DNA of 64,000 bases, taken from the NCBI GenBank assembly GCA_044229975.1, contig JBGARZ010000009.1, positions 219,947-283,946 on the forward strand, given 5' to 3'. The notes under the pieces were generated by a model, which was not told the DNA's origin, made no database searches, and saw only the letters and a program-made list of their open reading frames with translations. Each line of letters starts with the position of its first letter. Within the stretch, counting starts at the first letter, position 1. A program made the translations under genes and the position numbers. Positions 1,177 through 24,478 of the stretch are shown piece after piece. The DNA is from Polyangiales bacterium (GTDB lineage Bacteria; Myxococcota_A; Polyangia; Polyangiales; Ga0077539).

Positions 1177-1902
1177 CTACACGGACCATGGCGGGCGGCC
1201 TGAGCCGAGCGTCCTAACGCGATGAGACGGCAAGACGCGCGAGAACGGCAACAGTCGCTGCGACGTACTTGTTATCAACAAGGATCCACAATTCCACCGT
1301 AGGATTTGGGGGCTCATTTCATCGAGATTCCGATCGAGAAGTTCGGGAGGATAGAGCTTGCGATGGCACTCTTTGCATACCATCTCATAGTCCGGTCCTG
1401 ACGGCAGAGGCCCATCGAACACATGCTTTATCTGATTGTTATTACATCGCCAACTGAAGGACGACGCTGCCGTCCGAGCGGACGAGATTGAGGGCGCACT
1501 CGCTGGGCGAGCAGCCGGAATCGCCTCGGATTTCGGACGAAATGGCACATCCTCCAGCGTCACCGCCGTGGTGCGTTTTCGCACTAGAGCGCCGACCGCG
1601 ATGTTCGGGCAGCAGGAGCTCCGCCTCGGTAGCGCACACGATTTCGAATGGGGAGGGTGGTGAGATCTCGACCGAGAATTGAACGTAGAGTTTATGCCCT
1701 GAGATGACGGGGTGAAGTGGTGTGATGCGAACGTCCACCCAAACATCCCCTGCGTACCGAGTTCGAGCACGCCGAAGAACCCACCCCCGACGGGCGCGAC
1801 GCCAGCCGCACGCCTCGATCGATACAAGGGAAATTGATGAGCCTTCCAAATTTCACGGATCGAAGCCCGGTACCTCCGGCGGAAGTGACCGTGCGAGATC
1901 AC
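1177..1902 (-). CDS. Hypothetical ORF in a low-GC patch; the N-terminal part may be in another frame (1442..1849), so possibly frameshifted or a pseudogene
   Basis: Two minus-strand frames carry protein-like stretches: CKECHRKLYPPELLDRNLDEMSPQILRW in one frame, and ISPPSPFEIVCATEAELLLPEH...DSGCSPSECALNLV in the other. Local GC is clearly below the flanking ~70%. No recognisable domain. Confidence 0.2.
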   Translation of the reverse strand: MISHGHFRRRYRASIREIWKAHQFPLYRSRRAAGVAPVGGGFFGVLELGTQGMFGWTFASHHFTPSSQGINSTFNSRSRSHHPPHSKSCALPRRSSCCPNIAVGALVRKRTTAVTLEDVPFRPKSEAIPAARPASAPSISSARTAASSFSWRCNNNQIKHVFDGPLPSGPDYEMVCKECHRKLYPPELLDRNLDEMSPQILRWNCGSLLITSTSQRLLPFSRVLPSHRVRTLGSGRPPWSV

Positions 1903-2051
1903 GTCATCAACGGTCTCCCTCGGTAAGTCCTGTAATTCGCGTGTGTGGCATCGGGGGTGGCGGCAGTTCGACCTCCACGGGCACGACGTCCCGCTCGAAG
2001 TGCATGCGTCCCGACACCTTCATCGGCGCGCTCGCCCAGGAGTGACCTCCA

Positions 2052-2551
2052 CTACGCCCCGCCCCCACTCTCGCCGCGATGAAACACCTCGCTCCGCGCC
2101 GTGAGCCGCACCGCATACTCCTGCAGTTCCGCGCCGAGGATGCGCAGCGTCTCGCCCGCCGCGAAGGGTCCATGCACCACCGCCCCGTCGTCATCCCACA
2201 CCACAGGCAGCCGCCGCGCGCCCTGTGACGCCACGAACCCGTGCGCTCCGACGTCCTCGGGCACCCGCACCTCGACGTCGCCCCACCGCACCCCCACTCC
2301 CCGCAGCGCCTCTACGGACGGCAGCGCGCGCCAATGTTCGTCGCAGAACGGTCGCGTGTCGCACCAGGCACACTGGTCCCCCGTCCGCGTCGGCGCGGGT
2401 GTCTGTGCCACCGCCGCTCGCACGGCCTCGATGCGCGCCGCAAGGCGGTCTTCCAACGTCTCCAGCCGGGCCGCATCCACCCCGAAGACAGTGCTCCCCC
2501 GCGGGTGTCGCAGCGACAGCGCCACGGGCATGTCCCCCGTGCTGCGCCACC
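2052..2551 (-). pseudogene. C-terminal fragment of a Cas4-like PD-(D/E)XK nuclease, carrying the CxxCx5C cysteine cluster; separated from its N-terminal part by a transposon
   Basis: Translation RWRSTGDMPVALSL...TGDQCAWCDTRPFCDEHW. Reading frame continues exactly from the 6251..6934 fragment once the transposon and one TSD copy are removed. Confidence 0.65.
2545..2551. repeat. Target-site duplication CGCCACC, left copy
   Basis: Identical 7-mer CGCCACC directly flanks both transposon termini (2545-2551 and 6251-6257). Confidence 0.7.
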
Positions 2552-2576
2552 TGTTACCGGGCACGTTGGTTGATGG
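2552..2576. repeat. Left terminal inverted repeat of the transposon (TGTTACCGGGCACGTTGGTTGATGG)
   Basis: Matches the reverse complement of 6226-6250 at 19 of 25 positions, including the first 8 (TGTTACCG). Confidence 0.7.
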
Positions 2577-2750
2577 CGTAGTGCACCGGTTGGCTGATGG
2601 GCATCAACGGCGCGGCGCGATGACGCCCGTCGCTTGATGTCCATCGAGCCGACCGCGACTCGTTCGCCGTCTGCGCGATGGACATCATCGGGCGCGGCGG
2701 GGCGTCGCCGTAGGGCGATGGCCATCACCGTGGTGATGGAGTGGCAGCGA
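2566..2750. repeat. Subterminal array of transposase-binding-like repeats (motifs such as tgatggcgta, ctgatgggcatca, tgatgtccatcga, gatggacatcatcg, gatggccatcacc, gtgatggag)
   Basis: At least six copies of a GATGG(N)CATC-like motif within about 180 bp at the element end. Similar motifs recur at 5401-5428 and 6140-6200. Confidence 0.5.
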
Positions 2751-3052
2751 GCTTGAGGGAGATCAGAAAGGCAGGTCGTCGTGGTCGTCGTCGTGGCAGC
2801 GGCTCTCGCAGTCGACGGCGTCGCGGTAGCAGGCCAGCGCGCACAGCAGCGACTCCGCGTGCGCGATCACCAGGGTCGCCGCCTTCACCCGCAGCGCGCA
2901 GGCGACCGACCACGGCGCTGCGAGCTCGGGGTTGAGCGCCCGCGTCACCGCGATGGCGATGCGCAGCGTGTGCCCGAGGCCGTCCAGCACCGCGATCTCG
3001 GGCGACCCGCCGAGCACGGACGCCGACGCCCTGTCGTGGTCGCCACTCCCGT

Positions 3053-3880
3053 TCATCGATCGCCCTCCTCGCGCGAGGCGTCACTGGCCACCACCTGCCG
3101 CGCGACGGCGCGGTCCACCACGCGCTTGCCCTTGCGCGCCGCGGCGCGGAGCGCGTCGGTCGCCAGGCGATCGAGCTCGCGGTGTGCCCCCTGCGCCGCC
3201 TCGTGCAGCACGGCGATCGCGTCGTCGGCCAGGAGCTCGCTCGTGCACCCCACGCGCTCCAGCCGCAGCCGCAGGTAGGCCGCGCTGTCCTCGACGGTCA
3301 GCGGATCGATGCGTAGTCGGTGATGGAGGCGTGAGTAGAGCGAGCGGTTGATCCGTAGCGCGAGACGGTCGGCCAGCTCGGGCAGGCCCACGAGCACCAC
3401 CGAGAGCAGCGGGCGACGATCCCACTCGTAGTTGAGCAGGATGTGCAAGTGCGCGAGCGTGTCCTGGTGGAGCAGGTGGGCCTCGTCGAGGAGGAAGACC
3501 GGGTGCTGCCGCGACTCGCTCCCGAGCGCCTGCACGTCGGCGCTCACGGCGTGGAAGAGCGCCGCCGCGGTGGCCGACGGCGCGAGCCCGAGCGCGGTGC
3601 AGAGCTGGCGGTAGAAGTCGCGCCGGCCGAGCGTGGCGTTGTGGCAGTAGGTGAGCCGATAGCCCCGCTCGGGCAGCCGCGCCCGCATCGCCCGCAAGAG
3701 ACACGTCTTGCCCACGCCGGGCTCGCCCGTCAGCACCACCGAGGCGTGCTCGGAGACCGCCTCTTCGAGCGCCTGGCAGACCCCGAGCTTGGACGGCGGC
3801 AGCCACAGCGCGCGGTCGTCGAGGTCCTTGTGGAAGGGCGCCTCGCGCAACCCGAAGTGGCTCAGGTACGCGGGCGTCAC
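3053..3880 (-). CDS. Transposition ATPase, TniB/ExeA-like AAA (AAA_22)
   Basis: GTG start (VTPAYLSHFGLREAPF...) overlaps the TniA stop as GTGA. Walker A VLTGEPGVGKT, Walker B VFLLDEAH. The long N-terminal extension in the track ORF is a GC-rich open-frame artefact. Confidence 0.75.
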   Translation of the reverse strand: MTPAYLSHFGLREAPFHKDLDDRALWLPPSKLGVCQALEEAVSEHASVVLTGEPGVGKTCLLRAMRARLPERGYRLTYCHNATLGRRDFYRQLCTALGLAPSATAAALFHAVSADVQALGSESRQHPVFLLDEAHLLHQDTLAHLHILLNYEWDRRPLLSVVLVGLPELADRLALRINRSLYSRLHHRLRIDPLTVEDSAAYLRLRLERVGCTSELLADDAIAVLHEAAQGAHRELDRLATDALRAAARKGKRVVDRAVARQVVASDASREEGDR

Positions 3881-5289
3881 GAGCCCACCTCGGCGTCCAC
3901 GAGCGCCGCGTCGAGCGCGTCGCCGACGTCGTCGCCCAAGCTCGCGTTGGCCTTCGCGCGCGCCTGCTCCAGCAGGGCGCCCGCGGGGTCGAAGGGCACC
4001 CTCGCGCGCGGCGCCGTCGCGATGTGCTCGCGGCGCGCCGGACGCGGGCGCGTGGCGTTGGCCTTGGGGTCCACGCGGCGCAGGAGGTAGCGGTGCCCCT
4101 CGTGCTCGACCCACGGCGCCTCGGCGGGGTCGACCATGCAGCGCGCGACGGTCACCGTGCGCCCGGCGAGGAATCCCTGGTCGAGCTCCCAGGTGTGACC
4201 GGCCGCCGAGAGCGTGGTGTCCTTGCGCACGCGACGTGTCGAGCGGGCCGTGAGCGCCGTGCGCAGCGCCGCTTCGTCGAGGCGATCGACGGGACGCTCG
4301 GCGGTCGTCCACACGACGCCGGGCGAGCGGCCCATGAGCGAGGCGTGGGCGCTCGCGTGGTAGTGCTCCGAGAGGAAGGCGTTGAGCCTTGCCTGGAGGT
4401 CGTCGAGGGTCGCCAAGGCGCCGAGGTGGTCGAGGCAGCCCTGCCTCAGCGTGCGCCAGAAGCGCTCGATCTTGCCGCGCGCCTCGGGGTCGTAGGGCTT
4501 CGCGTGCACGAGCGTGATGCCCAGCCGGGCGCAGCACAGGCGCAGGATCTCGCCGCGGTAGGTCGACCCGTTGTCCAAATAAAGGACCTGTGGCGGGCCA
4601 TGGCGGCGCAGGGCGCGCACCAGCACGCCGAGCATGTCGACCTCGCGCTCGGTGGAGTGCACCTCCAGGGCGACGACGAAGCGCGAGGCGTCGTCGAGCA
4701 GGCCGTGCACCCGCACCGGCACCTTGTCGCCGCCGAGGGTGAGCGTGGGGCCGTGGCAGACGTCGCCGTGCCACAGGGCGCCGGGGCGCTCGGCCTCCCA
4801 GCGCAGCCGGGTGCGGGCGCCGGCGCCGTCGCGCATCGGGATGCGATCGAGCCCGTGGTCGGCGAGCAGCCGTCGCACGGTGGTCTCGGAGACCGCGCCC
4901 TCGGTGATGCGCCCGCTCGCGACGAGCTCGCGCAGGATGACGCTCGCGGTCGCCGCGGGGTGCTCGCGGCGGATGTCGAGCACCAGGTCACGCTGCGGCT
5001 CGGTGAGCTCGCGGGCGCGTCCGCGATCACTGCGCGGCTCGGGGCGCAGCGCTTCCAGGCCGCCCTCACGATGGGCGTACAGCCAGCGCTCCAAGGTCGG
5101 CAGACTGAAGGTGCGGGTGCGGGTCGCGCCCGGCGGGAGGAAGGTCTGCCTGGAGAGCGAGCGCATCTCGGCGCGCAGCTCGCCGCGGGCGAGGGTGCGC
5201 CGGGTGAGCGCGCCGATCACGCCGAAGCGGAAGAGGGCGATCTCTTCGCCGTGATCTCTGGGACGGATCTCGTGGTCATCGTTGGACAT
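3877..5289 (-). CDS. DDE transposase / integrase-core (rve) protein, TniA/Mu-like
   Basis: DDE triad context ALWHGDVCHG ... VLYLDNGSTYRG ... YDPEARGKIERFWRTL. Start MSNDDHEIRPRDHG at 5289; upstream in-frame extension judged spurious. Confidence 0.8.
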   Translation of the reverse strand: MSNDDHEIRPRDHGEEIALFRFGVIGALTRRTLARGELRAEMRSLSRQTFLPPGATRTRTFSLPTLERWLYAHREGGLEALRPEPRSDRGRARELTEPQRDLVLDIRREHPAATASVILRELVASGRITEGAVSETTVRRLLADHGLDRIPMRDGAGARTRLRWEAERPGALWHGDVCHGPTLTLGGDKVPVRVHGLLDDASRFVVALEVHSTEREVDMLGVLVRALRRHGPPQVLYLDNGSTYRGEILRLCCARLGITLVHAKPYDPEARGKIERFWRTLRQGCLDHLGALATLDDLQARLNAFLSEHYHASAHASLMGRSPGVVWTTAERPVDRLDEAALRTALTARSTRRVRKDTTLSAAGHTWELDQGFLAGRTVTVARCMVDPAEAPWVEHEGHRYLLRRVDPKANATRPRPARREHIATAPRARVPFDPAGALLEQARAKANASLGDDVGDALDAALVDAEVGS

Positions 5290-5413
5290 GGACGTCTCCT
5301 GCGCCGCGGCCGTGATGGGCGACGCGGAAGGAGCGGTAGCGGGGTCTGCCGCGCGGGGGAGGCGGCCCAACCGGGTGGGCCGCGGATCCCTCGGTGAATC
5401 AAGGCGATGGGCA

Positions 5414-6025
5414 TCATGGCGGGTGGCAGACGGCACGCGCGACGCGGGAGGGAATGGAGAGCGACTCGTCGGGGACGAGGGCCGCGAGGGTCATGGCGAC
5501 GCGCTCGGCGACGCGGCGCGAGGACCACTCGGCGGGCGACGGGCGCACGTCGGGGAAGAGCGTGGAGGCGATCGAGAGCCAGCGCAGGACCGAGTCCCAG
5601 CCGCGCGCCCCGTAGTTGCGAATGTGCGTTGGATTGAGCGCGCGGTAGACCGTGTCGAGCGACTGCCGAAGCGCGCCGTAGAGGGCGAACGCGAGGGCGA
5701 TGGTGACGGCGCCGAAGTGCTTGCGGGGGAGCACGTCGGCGGGCACGACGGTGGAGGTCGCGTCACACGCGGTGCAGCGGTAGCGGCGCGCGAAGAGCTC
5801 GTGGAAGGTCGCCGGCTCGTCGGGCGCGAGGACTCCGCGCACGGTGCGAGAGCGGAGCCCGTGACCATGGAGCACGAGAGGGCCGCCGGGCGGGGCGCTG
5901 GCGACGTGGCAGCACGGGGTGATGGGCGGTCGCGCGTCGTGGACGGTGGGGGGTCGGGCGATCCAGTCCTTGACGCAAAGCGCGAAGCGGACGACTCGTG
6001 GGGGGTCCCGGTGACTTTCTCCCAA
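5414..6025 (-). CDS. Hypothetical Cys-containing (zinc-ribbon-like) protein carried inside the transposon end region
   Basis: Strong GC3 codon bias on the minus strand. CCH...H ... CTAC motif (RRYRCTACDATSTV). No family assignment. Confidence 0.4.
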   Translation of the reverse strand: MGESHRDPPRVVRFALCVKDWIARPPTVHDARPPITPCCHVASAPPGGPLVLHGHGLRSRTVRGVLAPDEPATFHELFARRYRCTACDATSTVVPADVLPRKHFGAVTIALAFALYGALRQSLDTVYRALNPTHIRNYGARGWDSVLRWLSIASTLFPDVRPSPAEWSSRRVAERVAMTLAALVPDESLSIPSRVARAVCHPP

Positions 6026-6225
6026 GGCATCATCGGGGCCCGACGGGAGGGTGTTGGCGCACCGCTCCCGTCACCTTTTTCACTGGCCGACACAACGTCG
6101 CGGCCCGCTCCTGGGGCGCGACTACATCGCGGCGAGCGGCGAGCGCACGGGCAAACCGATGAGGGCCATCGTCGCGGTGGCGACCCCAGCACCATCAACG
6201 AGCCGGCGCGAAAGCGGGGCGCGAG

Positions 6226-6250
6226 ACCTCAACTCACGCGCTCGGTAACA
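6226..6250. repeat. Right terminal inverted repeat of the transposon
   Basis: Reverse complement TGTTACCGAGCGCGTGAGTTGAGGT matches the left TIR. Confidence 0.7.
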
Positions 6251-6257
6251 CGCCACC
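6251..6257. repeat. Target-site duplication CGCCACC, right copy
   Basis: See left copy. Confidence 0.7.
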
Positions 6258-6934
6258 AGAGCAGCGCATACAGTTGGAGCTGCTCTTCGTACTCGGGTCG
6301 CGGGTGACCCGTCTTGAAGTCCACCACGCAGGTACCTCCCGCGCCGAGCCGCAACATGTCGATCACGCCTCGCACCGGCAGTGTCGGGTGCGCCACCGAC
6401 CACTCCGTCAGCACGCCCTGCGCTCGCAGCCGCCGCAACGGGTCAACCTCTCCGCCGCCTCCCCCCTGGACCGAGACGATCGTCTCGGTCCCCTCGCGGT
6501 CGACGCTCGCGTACTCGCGCTGGAAGAGCGCGGCGACGCGGTTGTAAAGCGAGCGTGCGTCGTGGGGTAGCCGCAGCGCCGCGCGGCGCGGATGCCCGGC
6601 GAGCAGCGCGTTGGCCTCATCGATGCGCCGCTGGATCTCACCCATCACGTCGACCGCCCGCAGCGTGTGACGAAAGCCTTCGCTCCCCGGCGCCGGGAGC
6701 CCCGCGAAGGACAGCGCGCGGAACAGCCGGTCGAGCATCTCGTGCACGAGCGTTCCCTCTAGCGATGCCGCGTGCGGTCGCGTGGGGAAGCGCTCGAAGC
6801 CTGGCCACGACGAGCGCCGCAACTGCCACTGCCGCGGGCACTGCTCCAGTGTCCGCAGCGACGAGAAGCTCACGGTGCCGACGGTCGTCGCCCACGCCTC
6901 GGGCGCCGTCAGCCGGTGGAAGGGGTGGCTCACG
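6251..6934 (-). pseudogene. N-terminal fragment of a Cas4/RecB-like PD-(D/E)XK nuclease (motifs I-III and QxxxY), truncated by the transposon insertion
   Basis: LEQCPRQW (N-terminal Cys), GTLVHEMLD, GVIDML, VVDFKTG, QLQLYALL. GTG start overlaps the helicase stop (GTGA). The track ORF ends 6 codons into the transposon (..WWR|VTERVS*). Confidence 0.7.
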
Positions 6935-9900
6935 CGCTCCCTTCGAGCTTCGCCATCGCGGTCGGCAGCGCGTTCTCCAACGTCCACACGTCGAGCGTCA
7001 CCACCGGGAGCATGCGCGCCATGGCGGCGTCCATTACGGGCGTCGGCGAATGCTCGACGTCGACCAGTGGGTGATGGACCTCGACCCATGTCTCGCCGCC
7101 GTCTGGGAGGTCCACGATCAGCGGCACGTTGACCGTCCCGTCGCCCTCCGGCACGGCCTCCTCGCGATGGGCGATGCCGCGCAGCCGCAGCAGCTCACGC
7201 AGCGGCGCGATGGCCCGTTCCGCCGCGCCCACCTGCACGAGTGGGATCGCGCCTTCCGTGATCGCCGCGAGTAGCGAGAGCGCGAGTGTGCGATCGAGCT
7301 GCCCGTGGAGACGCTGGTTACCCCAATGGCGAAGGCAGCGGTAACACGACGCGGTGCAGTCGCAGCCAGCGAGCAGCTCACGGGTGGCGCCCAGCACCAG
7401 TGCGAGGTTCTCGCGGACCTGCCACGTGTAGCCCGCGCCGCCGGGAAGCAGGTCGTAGAAGTACACGTCGGCCTCGTAGGGGTCGCCGCTCGGGACGGGG
7501 TTCCAGTTGCCCGCGAGTTCACCCTCGTCGATCTGCAACGTGCGCGACGCGGCGAGGCCGATCGCCTCGACCAGCGACGTGAGTGCCGCCCGGCCCGCCG
7601 CACCCGATCGACCTGGCCGGTCCGCCACTGCGCAGTGCATCGGCGCCGTGAGCTTCACCCGCATGAGCAGAACGTCGGTCTTGAAGGTGTGCCCGAGGTA
7701 GAGCGGTCCGTCGCCCTGACCGCTGCACGTCACGCCCTCGCGGGTCGGGGGCGCGTGCACCTTCGAGGCGCCCTTGCCCGACAGCTTCGGGCTGCTGAAC
7801 CCGACACCCAGCGTGGGCTCGGCCAGTCCGCACGATCGGCAGATCATGAACCCGCGATCGCCGACACCCTTGTTCACCACGATGAGTTCACGAGCAGCGA
7901 CGCTCAGGCTCAGTCGTCCCGCGTAGCGGACCTCGTCCCAGTGATCGACGTGGGTCACCTCCAGCTTCGCGGGCGTGGTCTCGCCCGCGTACGAGACCGA
8001 GCCGCCGCGGTCGGGCTCGCGGCGCGCGTTGACGTCGGGCGCGAAGCCCTCCGGGCGCACGAAGGGGCGCTTGAGGAGGTCCGTGTTGCCGCACACCGGG
8101 CACGAGGCCAGCGCGCCCACCGCGAGTCCCCTGCCGACGTAGCCGCAGCCCCGACACGACGCGTACGGCGACTGCTTCGACAGGGTCTTCGCGACGTCGG
8201 GCTGGTAGGGGTTGTAGAGCGCCGCGGACACGAAGCGCTGGCCGTCGATGGTGAGGCTGCGGCCGGGCGCGTACTCGGTGAGCGCCACCTGGAGGTCGCG
8301 CTGCGGTTGATAGTCGAAGTCGAGCTTCCACTTCGGACCGCTCGCGCCCTTCTGCCGGTGCACCCAGAAGGCCACCGTGTCGGTCGGAAACGCGTAGCGC
8401 GGTAGGATCGCCCGCTCGATCAGCATCTGGAGGAGGTTCTCGTCGAGCCGGAGTTTGCGCGCCGTTTGCGCGGCCTCGTCCTGCGCCTCGTCCGCGGGTG
8501 CCTCCGTCGGTGGCAACGCGTCGCGCATCCGCAGCGTCAGCTCCTGAACCGCTCCGTCGAGCGCGGCATCAACGTCGAGCGCCTCGCGCGCGCCGTGCGA
8601 GAAGCTCGGCACCCACCGCCGCAGCTCCGCGAGCAGGCGCGCCTCGTGCGCGGCGAGCCAGGACTCCATCCGCACCAGGGAACACGGCTGCGCGGCGTCG
8701 AGGAAATCGCGCACCGTGCCCATGCTCTCGAAGAGCGCGTGCGCCGCCACCCCGCTCGGGACCTTCTCGTGGAAGAAGCGCTGCACCAGCCACGCGAAGG
8801 CGTGACGCCGCAGCACCCGGGTGTTCTCGACGTAGACCACGGGCGAGCGCACCGCGCCCGACACGATGCGCGTCGGGTCGTCGTAGTACCAGGCGTCGTG
8901 CGACCCGCCCTGCGCGTAGGTCACCACCGAGGCGATGGCGCGGCCCCGGCGGCCCGCGCGGCCGGCCCGCTGCTGGTAGTTGGCCACGTGCGGGGGGACG
9001 TTGCGCAGCGCCACACCGACAAGCGCGCCAATGTCGATGCCCACCTCCATGGTGGTCGTGCACGAGAGCACGTCGATGGGTGGCGCGTTGTCGATGCGGA
9101 GGTCCTGGAAGCGAAGCTCGTATCGCTCGGTGAGGTTGAAGGCCTGGTCGTCGTCGCCGAGACCAGTGAGCTGTGCGGTGTGCTCCTTCACCGTAAGGCC
9201 GAAGGGCTCGAGCGAGGTGCCGTCGAGCGCGCGCAGCACGGCGTCGCGGTAGTATCCGACCCGGGCTGAGAGCACCGCGCCGTCGGCAGGCAGGAGTTCG
9301 CCGCCGCAGTCGTCGCAGGCGCGGCCGAGGGTGTCGGCGTGCATGCGGTAGCAGCGCCCGCACATCCACCACGGACCTTCCGGGCGGAGGTTCATCGTGA
9401 GCAGTGAAGGCCCGAGGAAGTGCTGGTTGTTGATGAAGTGGAACATCCCGCTCCTGGGCAGGGACTCGAACCACTTCGTGACCGCGGCGCGCGCCGCTTC
9501 GTCCTCGACGAGAGTGCGGAGGTGCTCCTGGAAGCGCTGCGGGAGCAGGTCGAGCAGTTTGCCCGGGTTGATCCCGGCCGGCCTCTGGAACTCCTCGCCG
9601 AGACGCCCCGGCGACGCGCCCGGCGGCAGGAAGCAGCGGCGCTCGAGCTGCACGCGCATCCAACGATCGAGCAACGAACGGGTCTCGTCCGGCGAGAGCA
9701 CCCCCGCGGGGAATCCCTTGAGCAGCATCGCGGCCATGCGCGGGTCGACGATGTACTGCGCCACCCCGAGCTGCGAGAGCGACAGGAAGCGTTCGGTCAG
9801 CTCGCCGAAGAGCGCCTGCGCAAAGGCCTCGGGTTGCTGAAGCGAGTACGAGATCTGGAGGATTTGCGGGAGCGACATCGTCGCGGCGAGCACGAGGTGC

Positions 9901-12731
9901 CGGTGCCACTCGCCGGTCGGGTCGCCTTCCGGGAAGAGGTCGACGCTGCGCCTCGCACAGACATGCAGCACCGCCGGGTACAGGAGCCCGATTGAGGGCA
10001 CGTCGCCCTGCGACTCCAGGGTTCGCGCGGCGAGCACCAGCACCTGGCGGAAGGCATCTTGCGCGTGCCCGATGGCGAGCGCCGGCGCGAGGCGGGCGGC
10101 CTTCTGCCGACCATCGCTGAAGACCAGCACCTTGCGTCCGTGGTTGGGCAGGTCGGGTCGTGCGTCCTGCGGCGGCTGCTCGGCGAACTGCGTCTCCACC
10201 AGGGCGGTGAAGGGCTGTTCGCCGCGCGTGCGGTGGTCCTTGATGCGCCCCCGGCGCTGCGAGCCGGGCGGCTGACACGCCGGGCAGACCGGAAACTCCG
10301 CGGCCCGGCGGTCGTCGACCCGAGCCATCCACAGGTCGCGCACCTCCGCCGGCGGGAGCGTGTGCCCCGCATCGAGGAGCTTGCCCGTGCTGAGCTGTAC
10401 CGTGACCACCTCGGCGTCGTGCCCCGGCCGCGGGTCTCCCGGCAGTAGCTGCACCTGCACACCTTCCTCTTCGGCCGCCTCGCCCCAGAGGAAGTCCCAT
10501 TCGGACAGGTCGTGCGTCGGTGCATACGCGAGGCAGTACGCCCCGCCGCACTCGCGGCACGATGCGATCTCGAAGACCCGCGAGCGGCAGGCGTCGCAGA
10601 AGGTTCGCGCTGCCGTGAAGAGCTTGCCGAGCGGCGCGAACTCCCCGGGGTCGCACTGCCGACCCTCGCACCGCGGGTTCAGGCAGGCGTGCAGTCCGTC
10701 GATGCCACGGAACATCAGGTGGATGCGTGTCGGCAGCAGCCCCGGCTCGTCGGGCTGCGGGCGCGCGATGGCCCCAAGCGTAAGCAGGACTTCGGTAGCC
10801 TTGCGTGCGGTCGGCGCTCCCGGGAAGACCCGATCGGCGAGGGCGCCCAGCGCCACAGCCTGCGCCGAAGTCTCGTGAAGCACCTGCTGGAGAAAGGGCT
10901 GCGGCGAGAGCAGGCCGTGCAGCGACGCCACCAGCGCGGTCTCGTCGCCCGCTGGCATGGTGTGTCCGAGGTGCGCGAACAAGGGTGCAAGCACTGCCCC
11001 GAGCGCGTCGCTGGTGCGCGCGACGTGCAGTGCCTCCAGGTCGATGGCGGCGAGCACGTCGGCGGTTGCCGCGTCGCCGGGTCGCGGGCCCCTCGCCGCC
11101 TGGCGATGACCGGTGACGACCTCGAAGCCGTCGGGCGCGAGGCCGGTGAGGTCGGCCGCGAAGCGCCGCGCGACGTCCACCGCGTCGCCGCCGCCGAGCG
11201 AGGCGCTGGTGGCGATCATCGAGACCTTCTCGGGGCGGTCGATCACGCCGAGCCGGTCGAGGAGTCGGCGGATGAGGAACGCGACCTCCGCCCCCTTCGC
11301 CCCGCGGTACATGTGCGCCTCGTCCAGCACCAGCAGGAACCGGCTCCCCGGCTCTTCGAGCCAGCGCCGCGTCTCGTCGAAGATGGGCCGCTCGAAGGGG
11401 CGCATCAGCATGTACTCGAGCATCGAGTAGTTGGTGATGAGCACGTCGGGCGCGTTGCCCTGACCGGTCTCAGCGTCACAGACCATCTCCTGGCGAGTGA
11501 GCAGCTCGCGGTCGCCGTCGGCCGTGAGCAGCCGCCGCTCCCAGTTGTGCTTAGTGAACTTCTTCCCCTTCTTCTTGCCGCTCTTGTACTCGGCGGGCGC
11601 GGCCTGGTCGGCCGCGAGGAAGGCCGCGAGGTCCTTGGAGGGGTAGCGACCAAGGGTCTTCAGATGCGCCGCGAGCGCGGGCTCGTCGGTCTCCAGCGTG
11701 CGGTACCAGTTGAGCAGCGGAACCACGCGCTCGCGATCCTTGGTGGCGTCGCGCGGACCCGCGTAAGGCGTGCGGCCCGTATACATCCCGAAGGTCGGGT
11801 GACGGCCCGCGCCCGTGTCGTCGCGGAAGTCGCGCGCGAAGCCCTCGTCGCCGATCAGCCGTCGCAGGCGCGACACCTGGTCGTTCACCAGCGCGTTCAT
11901 CGGATACAGGATGAGCGCTCGGACGCCGCGCCTCTTCCAGGTCACTGGCGAGATGCGTGCCTCCTCATGGAGCTGCCCCACCATCGGCAGGAGGAAGCAC
12001 TCCGTCTTGCCCGACCCGGTGCCCGTCGCCACCACGAGGTTCTTCCGCGCGGGCCCGAGGAAGCCCTCGAGCGCCGCCGCCTGGTGCGCGTAGAGTGATG
12101 GGTAGATCAGCGCGCGGCGCCCCTCGGCGGCGCGAGAGAGCGAACCGAGGAAGGCCCTCGTCTTCGGGTCGATGCGCAGGTCGTCGAAGCCACCGCGAAA
12201 CTCCGTGTACCGCGGCGTGGTCTCGACGAAGGGCTCTTGCGCGAGGAGGTGCCCGTTGACGTCGGTCTCGAGCAGGGTGCGCCGCGCCTGCACGAGGCGC
12301 GGATCGTTGAGCGGCCACGCGGCCTCGAGGTAGCGCGTGAGCTGGCGCCGGAGCTGCGAGCTCAGCCGCGACGGCGTGTACCGCTCGTGCTTCGTGTCCA
12401 CGGACTCGAAGCGCAGCACCGGCGCCGGCGCCGCGGGCATCTTCTCGCGGGCAGCAGGGCGCGCGACCGGTGGTGCCGACGTCCGATCGAGCCAGCGCAC
12501 CATCGTGGCCTCGACGTCGGGGCACATCCCGCGGAAATCCATCTCGCCCAGCGACTCGGTCGAGCGCCCGCGCAGCAGCTCGTCGAGGAAGCCCAGCGTC
12601 ACGCTGACGACCCCGTCGAACTCCAGCGCGGTCGCGCCACCCATACGGTTCTCTCGCGCGAACGCGGCGTTCTTCACGTCGCGCAGCGTGTCGTCGTCGT
12701 CGGTAAACTTCGCCAGCTTCACGACGCTCAC
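6930..12731 (-). CDS. Giant SF2 DEAH-box helicase (about 1933 aa) with internal Zn ribbons and a C-terminal DUF1998/MrfA-like domain; DruE-like or fused DrmA-DrmB-like
   Basis: Walker A LVVATGTGSGKTECFLLP, DEAH box LVLDEAHMY, motif VI QRAGRAGRRG, multiple CxxC ribbons (CDACRS..CRECGG; CRGCGY..CPVCGN), terminal DUF1998-type CDCTASCYRCLRHWGNQ. Real start taken as GTG (VSVVKLAKF) overlapping the upstream stop; the first ~160 codons of the track ORF are a GC-frame artefact overlapping the UvrD-like gene. Confidence 0.8.
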   Translation of the reverse strand: MSVVKLAKFTDDDDTLRDVKNAAFARENRMGGATALEFDGVVSVTLGFLDELLRGRSTESLGEMDFRGMCPDVEATMVRWLDRTSAPPVARPAAREKMPAAPAPVLRFESVDTKHERYTPSRLSSQLRRQLTRYLEAAWPLNDPRLVQARRTLLETDVNGHLLAQEPFVETTPRYTEFRGGFDDLRIDPKTRAFLGSLSRAAEGRRALIYPSLYAHQAAALEGFLGPARKNLVVATGTGSGKTECFLLPMVGQLHEEARISPVTWKRRGVRALILYPMNALVNDQVSRLRRLIGDEGFARDFRDDTGAGRHPTFGMYTGRTPYAGPRDATKDRERVVPLLNWYRTLETDEPALAAHLKTLGRYPSKDLAAFLAADQAAPAEYKSGKKKGKKFTKHNWERRLLTADGDRELLTRQEMVCDAETGQGNAPDVLITNYSMLEYMLMRPFERPIFDETRRWLEEPGSRFLLVLDEAHMYRGAKGAEVAFLIRRLLDRLGVIDRPEKVSMIATSASLGGGDAVDVARRFAADLTGLAPDGFEVVTGHRQAARGPRPGDAATADVLAAIDLEALHVARTSDALGAVLAPLFAHLGHTMPAGDETALVASLHGLLSPQPFLQQVLHETSAQAVALGALADRVFPGAPTARKATEVLLTLGAIARPQPDEPGLLPTRIHLMFRGIDGLHACLNPRCEGRQCDPGEFAPLGKLFTAARTFCDACRSRVFEIASCRECGGAYCLAYAPTHDLSEWDFLWGEAAEEEGVQVQLLPGDPRPGHDAEVVTVQLSTGKLLDAGHTLPPAEVRDLWMARVDDRRAAEFPVCPACQPPGSQRRGRIKDHRTRGEQPFTALVETQFAEQPPQDARPDLPNHGRKVLVFSDGRQKAARLAPALAIGHAQDAFRQVLVLAARTLESQGDVPSIGLLYPAVLHVCARRSVDLFPEGDPTGEWHRHLVLAATMSLPQILQISYSLQQPEAFAQALFGELTERFLSLSQLGVAQYIVDPRMAAMLLKGFPAGVLSPDETRSLLDRWMRVQLERRCFLPPGASPGRLGEEFQRPAGINPGKLLDLLPQRFQEHLRTLVEDEAARAAVTKWFESLPRSGMFHFINNQHFLGPSLLTMNLRPEGPWWMCGRCYRMHADTLGRACDDCGGELLPADGAVLSARVGYYRDAVLRALDGTSLEPFGLTVKEHTAQLTGLGDDDQAFNLTERYELRFQDLRIDNAPPIDVLSCTTTMEVGIDIGALVGVALRNVPPHVANYQQRAGRAGRRGRAIASVVTYAQGGSHDAWYYDDPTRIVSGAVRSPVVYVENTRVLRRHAFAWLVQRFFHEKVPSGVAAHALFESMGTVRDFLDAAQPCSLVRMESWLAAHEARLLAELRRWVPSFSHGAREALDVDAALDGAVQELTLRMRDALPPTEAPADEAQDEAAQTARKLRLDENLLQMLIERAILPRYAFPTDTVAFWVHRQKGASGPKWKLDFDYQPQRDLQVALTEYAPGRSLTIDGQRFVSAALYNPYQPDVAKTLSKQSPYASCRGCGYVGRGLAVGALASCPVCGNTDLLKRPFVRPEGFAPDVNARREPDRGGSVSYAGETTPAKLEVTHVDHWDEVRYAGRLSLSVAARELIVVNKGVGDRGFMICRSCGLAEPTLGVGFSSPKLSGKGASKVHAPPTREGVTCSGQGDGPLYLGHTFKTDVLLMRVKLTAPMHCAVADRPGRSGAAGRAALTSLVEAIGLAASRTLQIDEGELAGNWNPVPSGDPYEADVYFYDLLPGGAGYTWQVRENLALVLGATRELLAGCDCTASCYRCLRHWGNQRLHGQLDRTLALSLLAAITEGAIPLVQVGAAERAIAPLRELLRLRGIAHREEAVPEGDGTVNVPLIVDLPDGGETWVEVHHPLVDVEHSPTPVMDAAMARMLPVVTLDVWTLENALPTAMAKLEGSA

Positions 12732-14826
12732 GCCGACACCTCCTGGATGTTCCAACCGCTTGCGTCGAGCGCACCGAGCGCGGGGTCGCTCCAGCCCTTC
12801 GGCTGCAATACCAGCAAGCCCCTCATCGCGCGGGTCATGCCCACGTACAGGAGCCTCCGGTGGGTGCGCATCGCCTCCTCGAACTCCTCCGTCGTCGCGA
12901 AGGCCTCCAGCACGGGGAAGCTCCCCGGGCGCAGGCCCGCGATCACCACCATCGGAAACTCCAGTCCCTTGGCCGAGTGCAGCGTGAGCACCTTCACGAC
13001 CGGCTCGCGCAGGTCGAGCTCGCGCCCCGGGAAGTACCGCGCCGCCACGCCCTCTCGCTGGAGCGCCGCTGCCAGCGCCGCGCCCGCCTCCGCGTCGGGC
13101 ACCAGCACCGCCGCGGTCTGTACCTGCAGCGCGAGGTGCTGCGCCATCTGCCGGAGAAAGCGCGCCGCCCATTTCCCCTCGTCGACGGGCGCGAGGCCCC
13201 TCGCGAGCACCGGCCACGGCCCCGACTTGGGGCTCTCCGACGCCTCCGGCGCGTCACCCGCATCGAGCAGCGCGAAGGCCGCCCGGTCGATCTCCGCTGT
13301 CGAGCGGTAGTTGCGAGCGAGCAGCGCCGTGCGCCCCTTGAACTGGAGCCGCGGGTGCGCGCTCGCGAAAGTGTAGTTGCGCGAGTAGAGCGACTGCTTG
13401 CTGTCGGCCGCGAGGAAGATCCCCTCCGGCGTCGCAGCTAGCTCGGCCAGGAGTGCGAGCGAGGCAGGCGACAGGTCCTGGGCCTCATCGACGACGACGT
13501 GGTCGTAACGACGCCCCCCGAGGCCAGCACGCACCCGTGCGAGCGCCTCTCTCCGCAGGTCGCTCCAGGTCTCCAGCTTCGCGAGCGCCAGGTCCTCCTG
13601 GAAGGCCACCCGCAGCGCCCACACCGTCGTGCGGAGCTTCTCGCCGAAGACGATCCCGCGGCCGGGTCGTGGCGCCGCCAGGTACTCGTCGAGCGTCGCC
13701 AGTTCGCGACCCTCGATCACCCACTCGAACTCGTCGAGCAGGTACTCGTCGGTGACGCCCGCCAGCGCCTTCGCCCGGAGCTTGCGCTCGAAGGCGCTCG
13801 GTCCGGGCGCCTCGAAGCTCGCGCGCAGGTCGCGCAGGCGTCGCCGCAGCACCGAAGCGTCCGCGAAGGGCCCCAGCGCCCGCGACGCCGCAACGATCTC
13901 ACGCGCGACGGTGTCGCAGGTCGCGACCCGCACCCGCTTGCGCTGATCGGGTGTCAGGAGCTGGTCGAGAAGCTGCCCGGTCGCCCGCTCGAGGGCCCGC
14001 GTGTACGTGGTGAAAAGCACCGTCTCGTCGCCGCGGGCGCCCTTCTGCTCGAGCACCGACTTCACACGGTAGAGGGCCACCGTGCTCTTGCCGGTGCCCG
14101 CGCCGCCCTTCACCAGCGTTGGGCCCTTGAGCGCCCAGCGGGTGAGCCGCTCCTGCTCGGGGTCGAGCTTCAGCAGGAACGCGATGAGCTCCCCCTCGGT
14201 GTACCGCACGAGGTCGTTCGAGTGCCGTACCACCAGGTCTGGCTGCGCGATCACCTCGTTGATCGGCCGGGGAAACAGCGCCTCCAGGACACGCTCGGCC
14301 ACGTCGGCGGGCACCAACGCGTCGAGGAGGTCGTCCTCGCTGCGACACCGCAGCAGCGCCGAGTGGTGGACCGGCTCAACCTTCAACTGCGCGAGCCACT
14401 CGGCGGTGACGGGCCGCGGCAGGGTGCGCCCCGCCTTCGTCGCCTTCGCATCGAAGTGGAACGTCGGCGCCTCGGCGCGGGCGAGCGCGGCGTCGAGGGC
14501 GTCATCGTCGACCTCGCGACCGGTGGGCTCTGGAGCGTCGGCCGTGACGCCGTCGATGCCGTCACGGTACGTGCGGTCGTCGCGCTTGCGGATCGCGAGC
14601 AACCGGATCCACGCCTCGCCGAAGGTGTAGAAGACGCGGTGATCGCCGACGCGCAGGCGGTAGATGTCGTCCTTGCCGACGAGCTTCTTCTTAAGCTTCC
14701 CATCGGGCAGCGGGTCGTCCGTGAGGAACCCGATCTTCTCCCAGAGCACCCCGGTCTTGTCGGGCGGAAAGGCGTTGAGCTCCCGCAGGAAACTCGGCTT
14801 CAGGTTCAGCTCTCGTCTCGTCGCAC
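12728..14826 (-). CDS. RelE/ParE-like toxin domain fused to a UvrD/Rep-type SF1 helicase
   Basis: N-terminus KPSFLRELNAFP...YRLRVGDHRVFYTF..IRLLAIRKRDDRTY (RelE/ParE fold signature). Then GGAGTGKST, DEAQD, NYRST, LTLHSAKGLEFPMVVIAG, LLYVGMTRA. GTG start overlaps the upstream stop (GTGA). Confidence 0.75.
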
Positions 14827-15831
14827 TCACGCCGTCACCCCCGACTCGTCCACTGCCATCCCCAACCGCGCGGACAACATCTCCCCCAACTCCGGCCAGG
14901 TCTCCGCCGGTACCGCGTAGCGCGCGATCCCATCGGCCGATTCGAGGCGATCGCCCACTCCCAACAGATACCGGTACTCCGCCCTCGGGATCCGACCGGG
15001 CACCGACACGGTGACCACATCGCCGGGCGTGGTCGTCGCCGTCACCGTGCGTCTCACCCCCGCCCTCGCCTCGACGGCCAGCATGGTGCGTGTCGCCTCG
15101 TCGCCCGTGAGCGCGCCCGTCCCCTCCTCGGTGCGCCACGCGTAGCGGTACCACCCACCGGGCTGTCGCAGCCGCTCGAGCCGCGGCAGCCCGACGTCGC
15201 TCCCTTCCGGGCGGCGCCACCGCCCGCGGTCGCCGTAGACCACGAACACTGCGAGATCCCGCTCATCGTCCCCCGCCGCCGCCTCGACCCGCCGCGACGC
15301 CAGCGTCTGCCACCATGCAGCCAGCGTCGGTGGCGCACGGTCGAGGCCCGCCCACACCGCGACCTCGATCACGCCACCACCGAGCGATGCCATGGCGCGC
15401 GCGAGCCCTACCCGGTCGTGGTGTCGCAGCATCATCTGCCTCACCCGCCCCCGCAGGATGTTCTCCTGAGGTAGCGCCGCCGCGAGCACCGAGGTCGGGA
15501 CGCTTCCCATGAGCAGCACGACCCGACTGTTGCCCACGACGGCTGCGCGCAGCGGGGCCGCCCCGACCAGCCCGCCGTCACCCACGAGCGCATCGCCCAC
15601 GCCGTCGAGCGCATCGATCACCTCGTGGATGCGCTCGCGCCGCGCGTCTTCGTCGGGCACGTCGTGCCAGCGCAGAACCCGATCGACCAGTGTGCGCCGA
15701 CGGATGCTGCCCTCAGCCGCGAGGTGCACGCGTATCGTCTCGCGCCATGCGTCGTCCTCGTCGGCGCCCATCCAGCAGACACCTGACGCCGCGGCCCGCT
15801 CGGTCAGCTCCTCCGCCGCCACGACCCTCAT
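14827..15831 (-). CDS. Hypothetical protein of the defence operon (334 aa)
   Basis: ATG 3 nt after the upstream stop; stop overlaps the next start. High GC3. No recognisable motif. Confidence 0.5.
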   Translation of the reverse strand: MRVVAAEELTERAAASGVCWMGADEDDAWRETIRVHLAAEGSIRRRTLVDRVLRWHDVPDEDARRERIHEVIDALDGVGDALVGDGGLVGAAPLRAAVVGNSRVVLLMGSVPTSVLAAALPQENILRGRVRQMMLRHHDRVGLARAMASLGGGVIEVAVWAGLDRAPPTLAAWWQTLASRRVEAAAGDDERDLAVFVVYGDRGRWRRPEGSDVGLPRLERLRQPGGWYRYAWRTEEGTGALTGDEATRTMLAVEARAGVRRTVTATTTPGDVVTVSVPGRIPRAEYRYLLGVGDRLESADGIARYAVPAETWPELGEMLSARLGMAVDESGVTA

Positions 15832-15834
15832 CGC

Positions 15835-21000: not shown

Positions 21001-21399
21001 CTGGGAGTTCTTGCGCGACTCCTTGCGGGCCTCCTCCTCGAAGCGGGCGCGGAGGAGTTCCTGACGCAGGCGGTCGACCTCGGCCTCCTCGTCGCGCGCA
21101 GAGATGCCGGCGAGCAGGCGCGCGGCGTCGTCGAGCACCCGCCAGGTGGGGTCGGCGTCGAAGCGGGCGCGCTCGGAGATGCGCGCGCGGACCGCGCGGA
21201 GGTCTTCGACGAGGCGGCGGCCGGGCTCGCCGAGTACGCGCGCGGGGGCGGGCTCCCACTGGGCGAGGAGGTGGTCGAAGAGGCCGTCGGGCGATGCCGG
21301 GAGTTCGGCGGGGCCAAGCGCACGTTGGGCCCACGGGCGGAGCGCGGTGTCGATGAGGTCGAGGGCGCGGGTGACTCGTTCGAGGTTCGACAGGGACAT
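18055..21399 (-). CDS. DUF499 ATPase, BrxC/PglY-like, with an N-terminal Swt1-like HEPN domain
   Basis: Characteristic DUF499 P-loop ELQTTFGGGKTHSMLALYHLF and Walker-B-like VVLVDEWVAY. Size 1114 aa, typical of BrxC/PglY. Confidence 0.7.
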   Translation of the reverse strand: MSLSNLERVTRALDLIDTALRPWAQRALGPAELPASPDGLFDHLLAQWEPAPARVLGEPGRRLVEDLRAVRARISERARFDADPTWRVLDDAARLLAGISARDEEAEVDRLRQELLRARFEEEARKESRKNSQVELKGAPSDGLKPWREVVLPHADVAKGTFQLAQFAADLWAVVTGDASEEYRDPAEFFRRTYLTEGLQQLLTNALQRLGGGSGDPVIELQTTFGGGKTHSMLALYHLFSGVAPTTLPGLEPVLERAGVSSLPPVRRAVIVGNKLSPGQPERKDDGTQVRTLWGEIAWQLGGREGYEMVRESDETATNPGDALRKVFARYSPCVVLVDEWVAYARQLFGSKELPGGNFDTHFTFAQQLSEAAKAAPRTLLVVSIPASESLVARDRKGQRLETEAQDIEVGGTFGHQALERLKNAIGRVESPWRAASSEESYEIVRRRLFQPVTDPALFAARDTVIRKFMELYRSNPNEFPAECKEKDYERKLQAAYPLHPELFDRLSMEWSSLPRFQRTRGVLRFMATVVHRLYHEGDRTLMILPASIPVASRDLQSELARYLDDPWGPVIERDVDGPGSLALRIDEENVNLGKVSAARRVARTIFMATAPVQRAAHVGIDEKSVRLGCVQPGEPIAPFGDALRRLVERGTHLYTEGSRYWLGLQATVSRLAEDRAADWKADVVAQEIVERLKEHFKTPANRGDFRATYVAPRKSGEVPDEREAGLVVLDPDDPHTPNATDSPGKLRAEEILEGRGTGPRTYRNSVVFLAPDRRRLVELEEAVRKFLAWKSIVKEANDLDLQPSQMTQATAREKAARETVQLRLHETWCLLLAPEQERGDDGAPPPAREWRELRLQAGGAEGLGVRASKKLRAEDLLVVELGGTMLKMHLDRVPLWRGDSVPVKTLADDFAKYLYLPRLQSTKVLIDAIGKGLANTAWETETYAWAERLDAETGRYAGLRAGTASTAVSADGDAVLVKAAVARAQMEADRARAEGAGTAVPKASPSGTFALVSPAGVEVARGGAAKAGAVAPTPEAMPKRFHASVDVEATQLAARAELIAKEVLKHLATLPGARVTVTLEVHAEMPEGASTEVVRNVRENCRTLGIADASFEK

Positions 21400-23919: not shown

Positions 23920-23947
23920 CACAGGGTGAATGGTCGCATGCGGACGC

Positions 23948-24478
23948 TCAACCCGCTCTTCGCCCGCCGTCGAGGCCGCCAGCACACTGCGCCTGCCAGC
24001 ACGCAACGGCCAGGGCGAGCGCCTCGTCGAGCGAGTCGCAGCGCCGCATGTGAGGATGGAGCTTCGCAGCGGCCCAGAGGTAGTTGCGGCCTTCGGTCGT
24101 GGGTGCAATCACGAAGAACGTCGGAATCCTCGCGCCGAGCAGGAAGCCGAACTCGCACCGGCTGGCGAGGGCCTTCGACGCCGCGTCCAGATGGAAGACC
24201 ACGCAGATGGCGTCGCGGAGGCCCGCGTGCTCTCGAGCGACGAGTGCGTCGACATCGGCCTGGCGAGCGTCCCCGTTGCTGGCATCGATGCCCGACCAGT
24301 CTGTGGCGGTCGGGTCGAAGCCGGGGACTCCCGCCTGATGGAGCGCCGCGAGCAATGGCAGACGCCACGGCGTCGATATGGAGCCATACAGTGCAACAAG
24401 ACCAGATCGTGATGCGACGGTGGACGAGGTTTCAGACTCAATCATTGGAGTCACGCGGGGAGGATGTTCGGCGAGCAC
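23948..24478 (-). CDS. Hypothetical protein (176 aa), possible Rossmann-like fold
   Basis: GC3-biased ORF directly downstream of the deaminase gene: LVALYGSISTPW...ICVVFHLD...FFVIAPTTEGRNYLW. No confident family. Confidence 0.4.
   Translation of the reverse strand: MLAEHPPRVTPMIESETSSTVASRSGLVALYGSISTPWRLPLLAALHQAGVPGFDPTATDWSGIDASNGDARQADVDALVAREHAGLRDAICVVFHLDAASKALASRCEFGFLLGARIPTFFVIAPTTEGRNYLWAAAKLHPHMRRCDSLDEALALAVACWQAQCAGGLDGGRRAG

Follow-up and report, generated by a model that had tools for sequence, protein, structure and literature searches.

A 3699-bp transposon with a 7-bp target-site duplication in the Cas4-like nuclease gene that ends a Druantia-like defence operon of a Polyangiales bacterium

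The locus

The locus described here lies in a 64-kb stretch of contig JBGARZ010000009.1 (positions 219,947 to 283,946; GenBank assembly GCA_044229975.1, from a Polyangiales bacterium), and this whole stretch is referred to as the window. A defence operon resembling Druantia type I, transcribed from the minus strand, ends here in a gene for a Cas4-like PD-(D/E)XK nuclease that is present as two fragments. The DNA between the fragments carries genes for a DUF6431-like protein, a DDE transposase and an AAA+ ATPase, as well as a further short open reading frame (ORF) (Table 1). A first-pass annotation, made from the sequence alone, had proposed that a transposon had cleanly split the last gene of the operon, generating a 7-bp target-site duplication (TSD). 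The evidence set out below leads us to the same conclusion, which we hold with very high confidence.

Table 1. Features of the interrupted nuclease gene, the element and the neighbouring defence genes (window coordinates)
Feature	Position	Strand	Remarks
Nuclease gene, C-terminal fragment	2052..2551	minus	Codons 229-391 and stop codon (2052-2054); CxxCx5C cysteines C286, C289, C295
TSD copy 1, CGCCACC (GGTGGCG on coding strand)	2545..2551		Heptamer single in L094 and L095
Complete transposable element	2552..6250	minus (genes), same orientation as operon	3699 bp; termini shared with L083, L084, L085
Terminal inverted repeat, ATPase-proximal end, TGTTACCGGGCACGTTGGTTGATGG	2552..2576	plus	
Four palindromic GATGNNCATC sites	2596, 2636, 2677, 2717 (2596..2726)		40-41 bp spacing
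97-aa ORF	2763..3056	minus	No family match; called as a gene in Logan copies
AAA+ ATPase, ExeA/AAA_22 type, 275 aa	3053..3880	minus	AAA_22 1.7e-24; Walker A GEPGVGKT, Walker B FLLDEAH
DDE transposase, 470 aa	3877..5289	minus	HTH_32 and rve; triad D176, D239, E275; no internal stop
DUF6431-like protein, 203 aa	5414..6025	minus	Four-cysteine zinc-ribbon (..C..C.. LHGHG .. RRYRCxxC), helical C-terminal part
Terminal inverted repeat, transposase-upstream end, TGTTACCGAGCGCGTGAGTTGAGGT	6226..6250	minus	
TSD copy 2, CGCCACC	6251..6257		Abuts the other end of the element
Nuclease gene, N-terminal fragment	6251..6933	minus	Codons 1-227 and two bases of R228
DruE-like helicase, ~1933 aa, intact	6930..12731	minus	PADLOC DruE1 1495 bits; Pfam DEAD, Helicase_C, MZB
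UvrD-like helicase, 700 aa	12728-14830	minus	Matches GajB models too; between DruD and DruE in L001, L002, L094
734-aa ORF	15835-18039	minus	No Pfam or PADLOC match
HmaC/DUF499 ATPase	18055-21399	minus	N-terminal Swt1-like HEPN domain (Pfam 1.9e-6)
483-aa ORF	21509-22960	minus	No Pfam match; weak PADLOC PDC-M09B
383-aa ORF	22957-24108	minus	No Pfam or PADLOC match
RdrB-like ORF	24529-27144	minus	
Weak RdrA-like ORF	27148-30831	minus	
HmaB	30896-33757	minus	
HmaA	35223-38345	minus	
GmrSD_N and Ser/Thr-kinase fusion	38373-40946	minus	
HNH protein	40979-42133	minus	

Element ends and target-site duplication

The boundaries proposed for the element, and the CGCCACC heptamer at each of them, were reproduced. 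So were the 25-bp imperfect terminal inverted repeats, which match at 19 of 25 positions and begin and end with the tips TGT...ACA. A repeat search recovered the ends of the element as an inverted pair of 22 nt with 82% complementarity, and a degenerate search for the terminus found no other copy of the element in the window, matching only the two ends. A promoter and terminator scan of 1500..7000 returned no sites, which is uninformative in DNA of approximately 70% G+C.

The positions of the termini are fixed by copies found elsewhere. L084, a contig of 3700 nt from another sample, is 100% identical to the element, while L083 and L085 are 99.2-99.4% identical to it and have different flanks, with the homology ending exactly at TGT and ACA. 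The exact transposase was present in seven other contigs, where the termini were the same and the flanks differed, and copies 99.2-99.6% identical to the window element occur in other surroundings. Because the termini are fixed by these independent copies (L083, L084 and L085), the 7-bp duplication in the window is genuine. A duplication of 6 bp extended by one base of chance identity was considered and rejected, as only 7 bp abuts both of the ends so defined, and only the removal of 7 bp restores the reading frame and an invariant W-W-R motif.

The reconstructed nuclease gene

Removal of 2552..6257 in silico, followed by translation, gave one minus-strand ORF of 391 aa that runs in frame through ...QLQLYALLWW-R-STGDMPVALSL..., as had been predicted, and the joined region reads QLQLYALLWWRSTGDMPVALSL. 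The N-terminal fragment contains C32, D192, D205-x-K207 and Q218xxxY222. Its start codon, the GTG at 6933..6931, shares bases with the stop codon of the DruE gene (GTGA); the first-pass annotation had recognized this fragment and placed its edge at 6934. At present the frame continues into the element as ...WWRVTERVS*, with the stop codon at 6229-6231, and the top 7 nt of the C-terminal fragment are the left copy of the TSD. In the source annotation the gene is divided into P0002 (234 aa, 99% identical, N-terminal) and P0052 (159 aa, C-terminal), and the last six residues of P0002 (VTERVS) are translated from the terminus of the element.

When 5.8 billion proteins were searched with the reconstructed ORF, the intact homologues (37-66% identity, 97-99% coverage) were single proteins of 381-397 aa. 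Their alignment is gapless at the junction, with W226, W227 and R228 invariant. The catalytic residues D192, D205, K207 and Q218 are also invariant and Y222 is nearly so, and the cysteines of the C...CxxCx5C pattern are retained, C32 in all sequences and C286, C289 and C295 in at least 90% each. The Pfam domain PDDEXK_1 (PF12705) matched residues 20-296 over the whole of its profile (1-247 of 247; 77.6 bits against a cut-off of 22), and this match runs over the junction at residue 228. The earlier description of a split Cas4-like nuclease, with its motifs in the N-terminal piece and CxxCx5C in the C-terminal piece, is therefore borne out by the homologue alignment and by the domain match. As the Cas4 equivalog model TIGR00372 (NCBIfam) scored only 29.4 bits against its cut-off of 65, 'Cas4-like' describes the nuclease and does not denote family membership.

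The insertion parts C32 from C286, C289 and C295, leaving the catalytic motifs in the N-terminal piece, which is also severed from a conserved C-terminal domain of approximately 90 aa. In Cas4 and AddB the iron-sulfur cluster is required for both stability and activity. By analogy, the loss of three of the four cluster cysteines from the N-terminal piece very probably leaves the split nuclease inactive.

The uninterrupted gene in close relatives

The first-pass annotation had suggested that related genomes be searched for the uninterrupted locus, and what they hold is one continuous gene, the opposite of two naturally separate ones. Protein P0051, from another assembly, is 391 aa long and aligns with the reconstructed ORF at 93% identity without gaps; it falls in the same 90%-identity cluster as P0002. 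It is encoded at two loci, L094 (GCA_044228995.1) and L095 (SRR28480390). At both loci the order of genes (734-aa protein, 334-aa DruD-like, 700-aa UvrD-like, 1933-aa DruE-like and 391-aa nuclease) is that of the window. The nucleotide identity of L094 was 94.8% to window positions 16933..6251 and 93.0% to positions 2551..2020, with exactly 7 nt of L094 shared between these alignments. Both relatives read ...gcactgctct GGTGGCG ccgcacggggg..., with the heptamer found once where the window has two copies. This empty site with a single heptamer establishes both the transposition event and the 7-bp duplication.

A scan of the Joint Genome Institute (JGI) metagenomes for the reconstituted 26-nt junction found no empty site. 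The contig 100% identical to the element (L084, SRR28480386) and one of the two loci with the empty site (L095, SRR28480390) come from neighbouring run accessions, and strains with an occupied and an unoccupied nuclease gene may coexist in the samples of one study.

Both nuclease fragments are free of stop codons and frameshifts. The ratio of non-synonymous to synonymous substitution rates (dN/dS) relative to L094 was 0.17 in the N-terminal and 0.34 in the C-terminal piece, and synonymous divergence (dS) was 0.13-0.20 throughout. As these ratios are below 1 and in the range of the neighbouring genes (DruD 0.36, DruE 0.10 and UvrD 0.08), most of the divergence from L094 accumulated under purifying selection. 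The insertion took place after the L094 lineage had split off and is probably recent, with no sign of a long pseudogene phase. The inactivation had been called recent and datable. Its recency is consistent with the open fragments, the dN/dS ratios and the 100% identical copy found elsewhere. A date is not supported, since imperfection is inherent in the inverted ends and no clock is available, and the evidence gives only a bound.

The genes of the element

The start codon of the ATPase gene, a GTG, overlaps the stop codon of the transposase gene. Among the NCBIfam transposase families the best match to the transposase was IS481 (NF033577, 190.2 bits, profile positions 22-280 of 284), although the curated cut-off of 224 was not reached, and the ranking continued with IS3, ISNCY, IS630 and IS21. 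The IS21 models were likewise below their cut-offs (IstA, NF033546, 43.5 bits against 160; IstB, NF038214, 23.6 bits against 200). In Pfam, the TniB domain (PF05621) had no match to the ATPase at E <= 0.01 and the transposase lacked the Mu-transposase C-terminal domain. No resolvase, TnsA or TniQ was present in the ORF list of the element or in the family scans. The match of the 203-aa protein to DUF6431 (PF20020) is weak (23.4 bits, 5.5e-5; gathering cut-off 26.6), and its close homologues carry precomputed PF20020 matches. The alignment of that family shows CxxC or PCC, then LHGHG, then RRYRCxxC, followed by helices.

Searches against the sequences of solved structures found only retroviral integrase cores for the transposase (E ~3e-4) and nothing useful for the ATPase. 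An AlphaFold model of the ATPase (predicted local distance difference test score 83) matched Cdc6/Orc1, RuvB and the TnsC of ShCAST at similar significance, the last (filament subunit, 7m99_A) over the full length of the model (E = 2e-8; TM-scores 0.60 and 0.63). The model of the DUF6431 protein matched no TniQ structure.

The earlier identification of the transposase as TniA-like was not supported, as it combines HTH_32 and rve domains, has IS481 as its best family, below the cut-off, and showed no TniA/TnsB-type domain. Of the label TniB/ExeA-like given to the ATPase, the ExeA part is correct, while the resemblance to TniB does not go beyond the level of the general AAA+ fold. If the 'Cys-rich passenger ORF' of the first-pass annotation was the ORF at 5414..6025, it encodes the DUF6431 zinc-ribbon protein, which the related loci described next show to be no passenger.

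The element family

A scan of one genome per species (the GTDB representatives, among which the source genome is not found) identified 158 related loci, overwhelmingly in Myxococcota (Sorangium, Archangium, Corallococcus, Haliangium, Kofleriaceae and metagenome-assembled genomes (MAGs) of Polyangiales). Many of them are on contigs of 3.3-3.8 kb, as is usual for repeats with many copies when short reads are assembled. When 80 loci were examined with tblastn, all 80 had the transposase, 79 the ATPase and 72 the DUF6431 protein, but only four had the 97-aa ORF. Seven of the eight loci with no DUF6431 match end before the expected position of the gene, the exception being L038. Since the DUF6431 protein was detected at 72 of the 80 loci and seven of the eight misses are on incomplete stretches, it is a core component of the element family and not cargo. 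The 97-aa ORF is restricted to the closest relatives of the window element.

The same three genes are present in the Cupriavidus necator plasmid pBB2, annotated as a DUF6431 domain-containing protein, a DDE-type integrase/transposase/recombinase and an ATP-binding protein (PLSDB), and in Rhodococcus plasmids a helix-turn-helix protein is in the first position of the module. Homologues of the ATPase number more than 3136 in the protein collection and are often labelled 'general secretion pathway protein A', almost certainly in error. The labels given to the genes of the element in public records are only generic ('DDE-type integrase', 'general secretion pathway protein A', 'DUF6431'). In the full-text literature we found no paper describing such an element, and of related gene pairs only an 'exeA-int' pair noted in mcr-9 contexts; the search did not cover ISfinder, where the family may already be catalogued. 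We suggest only tentatively, and with more doubt than confidence, that the element represents an abundant and formally undescribed family with three components, namely a DUF6431 zinc-ribbon/HTH-like protein, an IS481-related transposase with a long tail and an ExeA-type ATPase.

Duplications in the family were most often 6 bp, with a range of 4-8 bp. Sorangium sp. So ce1335 contains five full copies of 3589 bp with the ends TGTTACCG.../...CGGCAACA, each flanked by a separate 6-bp duplication, and a sixth copy (L052) in which the upstream end is missing. The consensus for the ATPase-side terminus of the relatives is TGTTACCG...GTTGATG. Duplications of 6 bp were also found at seven more loci (L013, L018, L027, L040, L042, L062 and L082), as well as at L090, where the DUF6431 protein is 88% identical, and at L091. 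Further loci had duplications of 5 bp (three loci) or 8 bp (one locus), and L099, a full copy 92% identical to the element, had a flanking repeat of only 4 bp. The 7-bp duplication claimed for the window stands at this site, where L094 and L095 have the single copy, and is atypical for the family. No consensus in the duplicated target sequences was obvious on inspection.

At the ATPase-side end, the four palindromes lie 45, 85, 126 and 166 nt from the tip. The window contains 10 matches to GATGNNCATC, against 1.0 expected from shuffled sequence, and five of them are on the element. The positions of the palindromes are kept in L051, L090 and L091, whose proteins are only ~58-60% identical to those of the window element, and partly in L013 and L040. 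The opposite end has no palindrome array. The four palindromes are presumed to be the protein-binding sites of the ATPase-side end. A fifth copy (GATGGGCATC, 5406-5415) lies just after the end of the DUF6431 coding sequence, in the gap of 124 bp before the start of the transposase gene, and may be a regulatory operator.

Several other observations were made on members of the family. At L090 (JGI 3300056831, a 109-kb contig), the relative of the element lies inside an IS66-family transposase gene, with its 6-bp duplication, and an IS21-type IstA/IstB pair separates further fragments of the same IS66 gene; the locus looks like a set of nested insertions in a transposon graveyard. On two JGI metagenome contigs (L098 and L102) the exact 30-nt terminus TGTTACCGAGCGCGTGAGTTGAGGCTTCGCG is followed by DNA unrelated to the element; possible explanations are solo ends, deletion derivatives and non-autonomous relatives. 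Contigs of the length of the element whose transposases are 58-64% identical to that of the window (L007, L009, L010, L032, L033 and others) were found in MAG bins labelled Chloroflexota, Gemmatimonas, Solirubrobacteraceae, Mucilaginibacter and Burkholderiales. A myxobacterial repeat with many copies could have contaminated these bins, or the element could truly have spread horizontally.

Interpretation and alternative explanations

We reconstruct the events at the locus as follows. An element with a DDE transposase entered codons 226-228 (W-W-R) of the 391-aa nuclease gene, and staggered cuts in the target, 7 bp apart, followed by repair, would have produced the duplication of GGTGGCG. The transposase (D176, D239 and E275) presumably works with its AAA+ partner, by analogy with IS21, Mu and Tn7-type systems. 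A probable role for the DUF6431 zinc-ribbon protein is to bind DNA as an accessory or regulatory factor, and the sites bound at one end are probably the four phased palindromes. Transcription of the operon could read through into the genes of the element, which point in the same direction.

The source annotation, with its two proteins P0002 and P0052, could be taken to mean that the nuclease pieces are naturally separate genes with the element merely lying between them. This is extremely improbable, and is already refuted by the 93%-identical orthologue, which is a single 391-aa gene with one copy of the target at L094 and L095; the full-length homologues are likewise all single proteins of 381-397 aa that align without gaps at the junction, the Pfam domain crosses it, and the last six residues of P0002 come from the end of the element. 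An assembly artefact, in which a multi-copy repeat was misplaced in the contig, would be a natural suspicion for an element that is multi-copy in metagenomes and usually assembles into its own contig of ~3.7 kb, the kind of repeat prone to misplacement. However, a misassembly creates no perfect 7-bp direct repeat abutting both exact termini and leaves no frame that closes exactly on the invariant W-W-R, and the source contig spans 432 kb, so that we consider an artefact very unlikely. A different question is whether the element is a transposon of the Tn5053/Tn402 type, or a Tn7-like transposon with TniA, TniB and TniQ, for which the nuclease gene was a selected target under directed targeting, as the gene names used in the first-pass annotation would imply. 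The pairing of a DDE enzyme with an AAA+ ATPase, the full-length match of the ATPase model to ShCAST TnsC (E = 2e-8, TM-scores 0.60 and 0.63), the asymmetric ends with multiple sites and a zinc-binding third protein that could be thought an analogue of TniQ are all in keeping with this. Yet there is no TniB match in Pfam (E <= 0.01) and no Mu-transposase C-terminal domain, the transposase is closest to IS481 and then to IS3, and the element has no homologue of a resolvase, TnsA or TniQ. The duplications in the family are mostly of 6 bp and not 5 bp, with no obvious target consensus, the DUF6431 model has no TniQ structure match, and Cdc6/Orc1 and RuvB score level with TnsC. We give this reading of the element a low probability. 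Finally, the insertion may have been selected, the loss of a costly or self-toxic nuclease being adaptive. Defence nucleases can be costly to the cell, which is general knowledge that favours this view, and it was the terminal gene alone that was hit, with all upstream genes intact; but this is a single event in which nothing separates selection from chance, and relatives of the element insert in varied places, such as the IS66 transposase gene in L090. We consider selection for the loss unlikely.

We therefore retain the conclusion that a 3699-bp transposon split the terminal gene of the defence operon with duplication of 7 bp. Some points weigh against it or against parts of it. The duplication of 7 bp is atypical, as most copies in the family have 6 bp and L099 only 4 bp. 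The loss of nuclease function is one we infer by analogy with Cas4 and AddB, and the roles given to the ATPase, the DUF6431 protein and the palindromes in the element family are conjectured in a similar way. The wider system is not canonical Druantia type I, with only a weak DruD and no DruA, DruB or DruC detected. It might also be that only some members of the population sampled carry the insertion.

The defence operon and island

The position of the nuclease as the last gene of a defence operon, as originally described, was confirmed. It is the last co-directional gene after DruE in L001, L002 and L094, which share the gene order of the window, and its start codon overlaps the stop codon of DruE, making it the last, translationally coupled gene; homologues at 39% identity likewise follow a helicase with an MZB domain. 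The DruE gene in the window has no internal stop codons and the upstream DruD, UvrD and DruE genes are all open. A weak match to the PADLOC DruD1 model (1.5e-8) was found for the 334-aa ORF, and the nuclease matched the PADLOC PD-(D/E)XK models for DruK at ~1e-12, with the Cas4 models matching more weakly. No PADLOC model for DruA, DruB or DruC matched any of the upstream ORFs. Because of this, and because a UvrD-like helicase lies between DruD and DruE, the operon (734-aa protein, DruD, UvrD-like helicase, DruE and nuclease) is Druantia-type-I-like rather than canonical, and the UvrD and nuclease genes are the two extra genes of this variant.

The DruE of type I systems is reported to carry a predicted inactive Vsr nuclease domain (preprint on YprA-family helicases, 10.1101/2025.09.15.676423). 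As the nuclease domain of DruE is thus predicted to be inactive, it is plausible that a separate nuclease gene provides a functional partner for DruE. At L088/L089 (ERR14835622 and ERZ27280297), a nuclease 39% identical to that of the window was found after a pair of much shorter ORFs of 536 aa (Helicase_C) and 327 aa (MZB) and not after a full DruE. This may reflect a reduced helicase or one divided during gene calling. Two further genes adjoin the nuclease there, one with APH and TCAD9 domains and the other with SMC_N-like and AAA_21 domains.

The operon forms the end of a long defence island whose genes all run in the same direction on the minus strand (18055-42133 in the window; Table 1). 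The Druantia-like block begins with the 734-aa gene, and HmaC is directly upstream of this; the Hma genes are split by ~9 kb of other genes.

Implications

The event itself is ordinary, a disruption of a gene by a transposon that is cleanly documented here and that leaves current understanding unchanged. Its consequences for annotation are that 6251..6933 and 2052..2551 should count as one pseudogene and that the three 'hypothetical / ExeA / integrase' genes between the nuclease halves should count as a mobile element. The by-products are less ordinary. The insertion supplies the exact ends, the duplication and the empty site for a very common and poorly labelled family of myxobacterial transposons, which are needed to define and annotate this three-gene family precisely. 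It is also a natural knock-out of an accessory Cas4-like nuclease in a Druantia-like variant operon, and a comparison with the intact relative could show what the nuclease contributes.

Comparison with known systems

The nuclease resembles the 4Fe-4S nucleases of the Cas4/AddB type in its PDDEXK_1 domain, in D192, D205-x-K207 and Q218xxxY222, and in the C32...C286xxC289x5C295 cysteines. It differs from both in having the extra conserved C-terminal domain of ~90 aa, and from Cas4 in following DruE and not cas genes, with the same upstream neighbour found in L001, L002 and L094. The operon shares with Druantia type I the strong DruE1 match (1495 bits), the weak DruD1 match and the match of the nuclease to DruK. 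It differs in that DruA, DruB and DruC were not detected, in the UvrD-like helicase inserted between DruD and DruE, and in the HmaC-like ATPase directly upstream.

Classical members of the IS481 family are ~1-1.3 kb in length with a single ORF. The element studied here shares with them the family that scores best for its transposase, the TGT...ACA termini and the modal 6-bp duplication of its relatives, but its family has three conserved genes in 3.1-3.7 kb, its transposase has a C-terminal extension of ~150 aa and one end bears four phased palindromes. According to ISfinder data, most IS481 members make 6-bp duplications, with a range of 2-15 bp (PMC10045372).

With Tn5053/Tn402 and the Tn7-like transposons, including the CRISPR-associated ones, the element has in common a DDE enzyme with an AAA+ regulator and asymmetric ends with multiple sites, and its ATPase has the same size as ShCAST TnsC and a similar fold. 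It differs from them in lacking matches to TniB and to the Mu C-terminal domain, as well as a resolvase, TnsA and TniQ, in the duplications of its family, which are mostly 6 bp and not 5 bp, and in that no target specificity was seen. The asymmetric multi-site end recalls Mu, Tn7 and IS21 alike.

IS21, with IstA and IstB, has no DUF6431 gene, and the IstA and IstB models are far below their cut-offs on the window proteins. However, IS21 has the same order of a transposase followed by an AAA+ ATPase with overlapping stop and start codons, ends that start with TG and contain multiple subterminal repeats, and duplications of variable length, 4-8 bp. IS21 is the best functional analogy for the way in which the element probably works.

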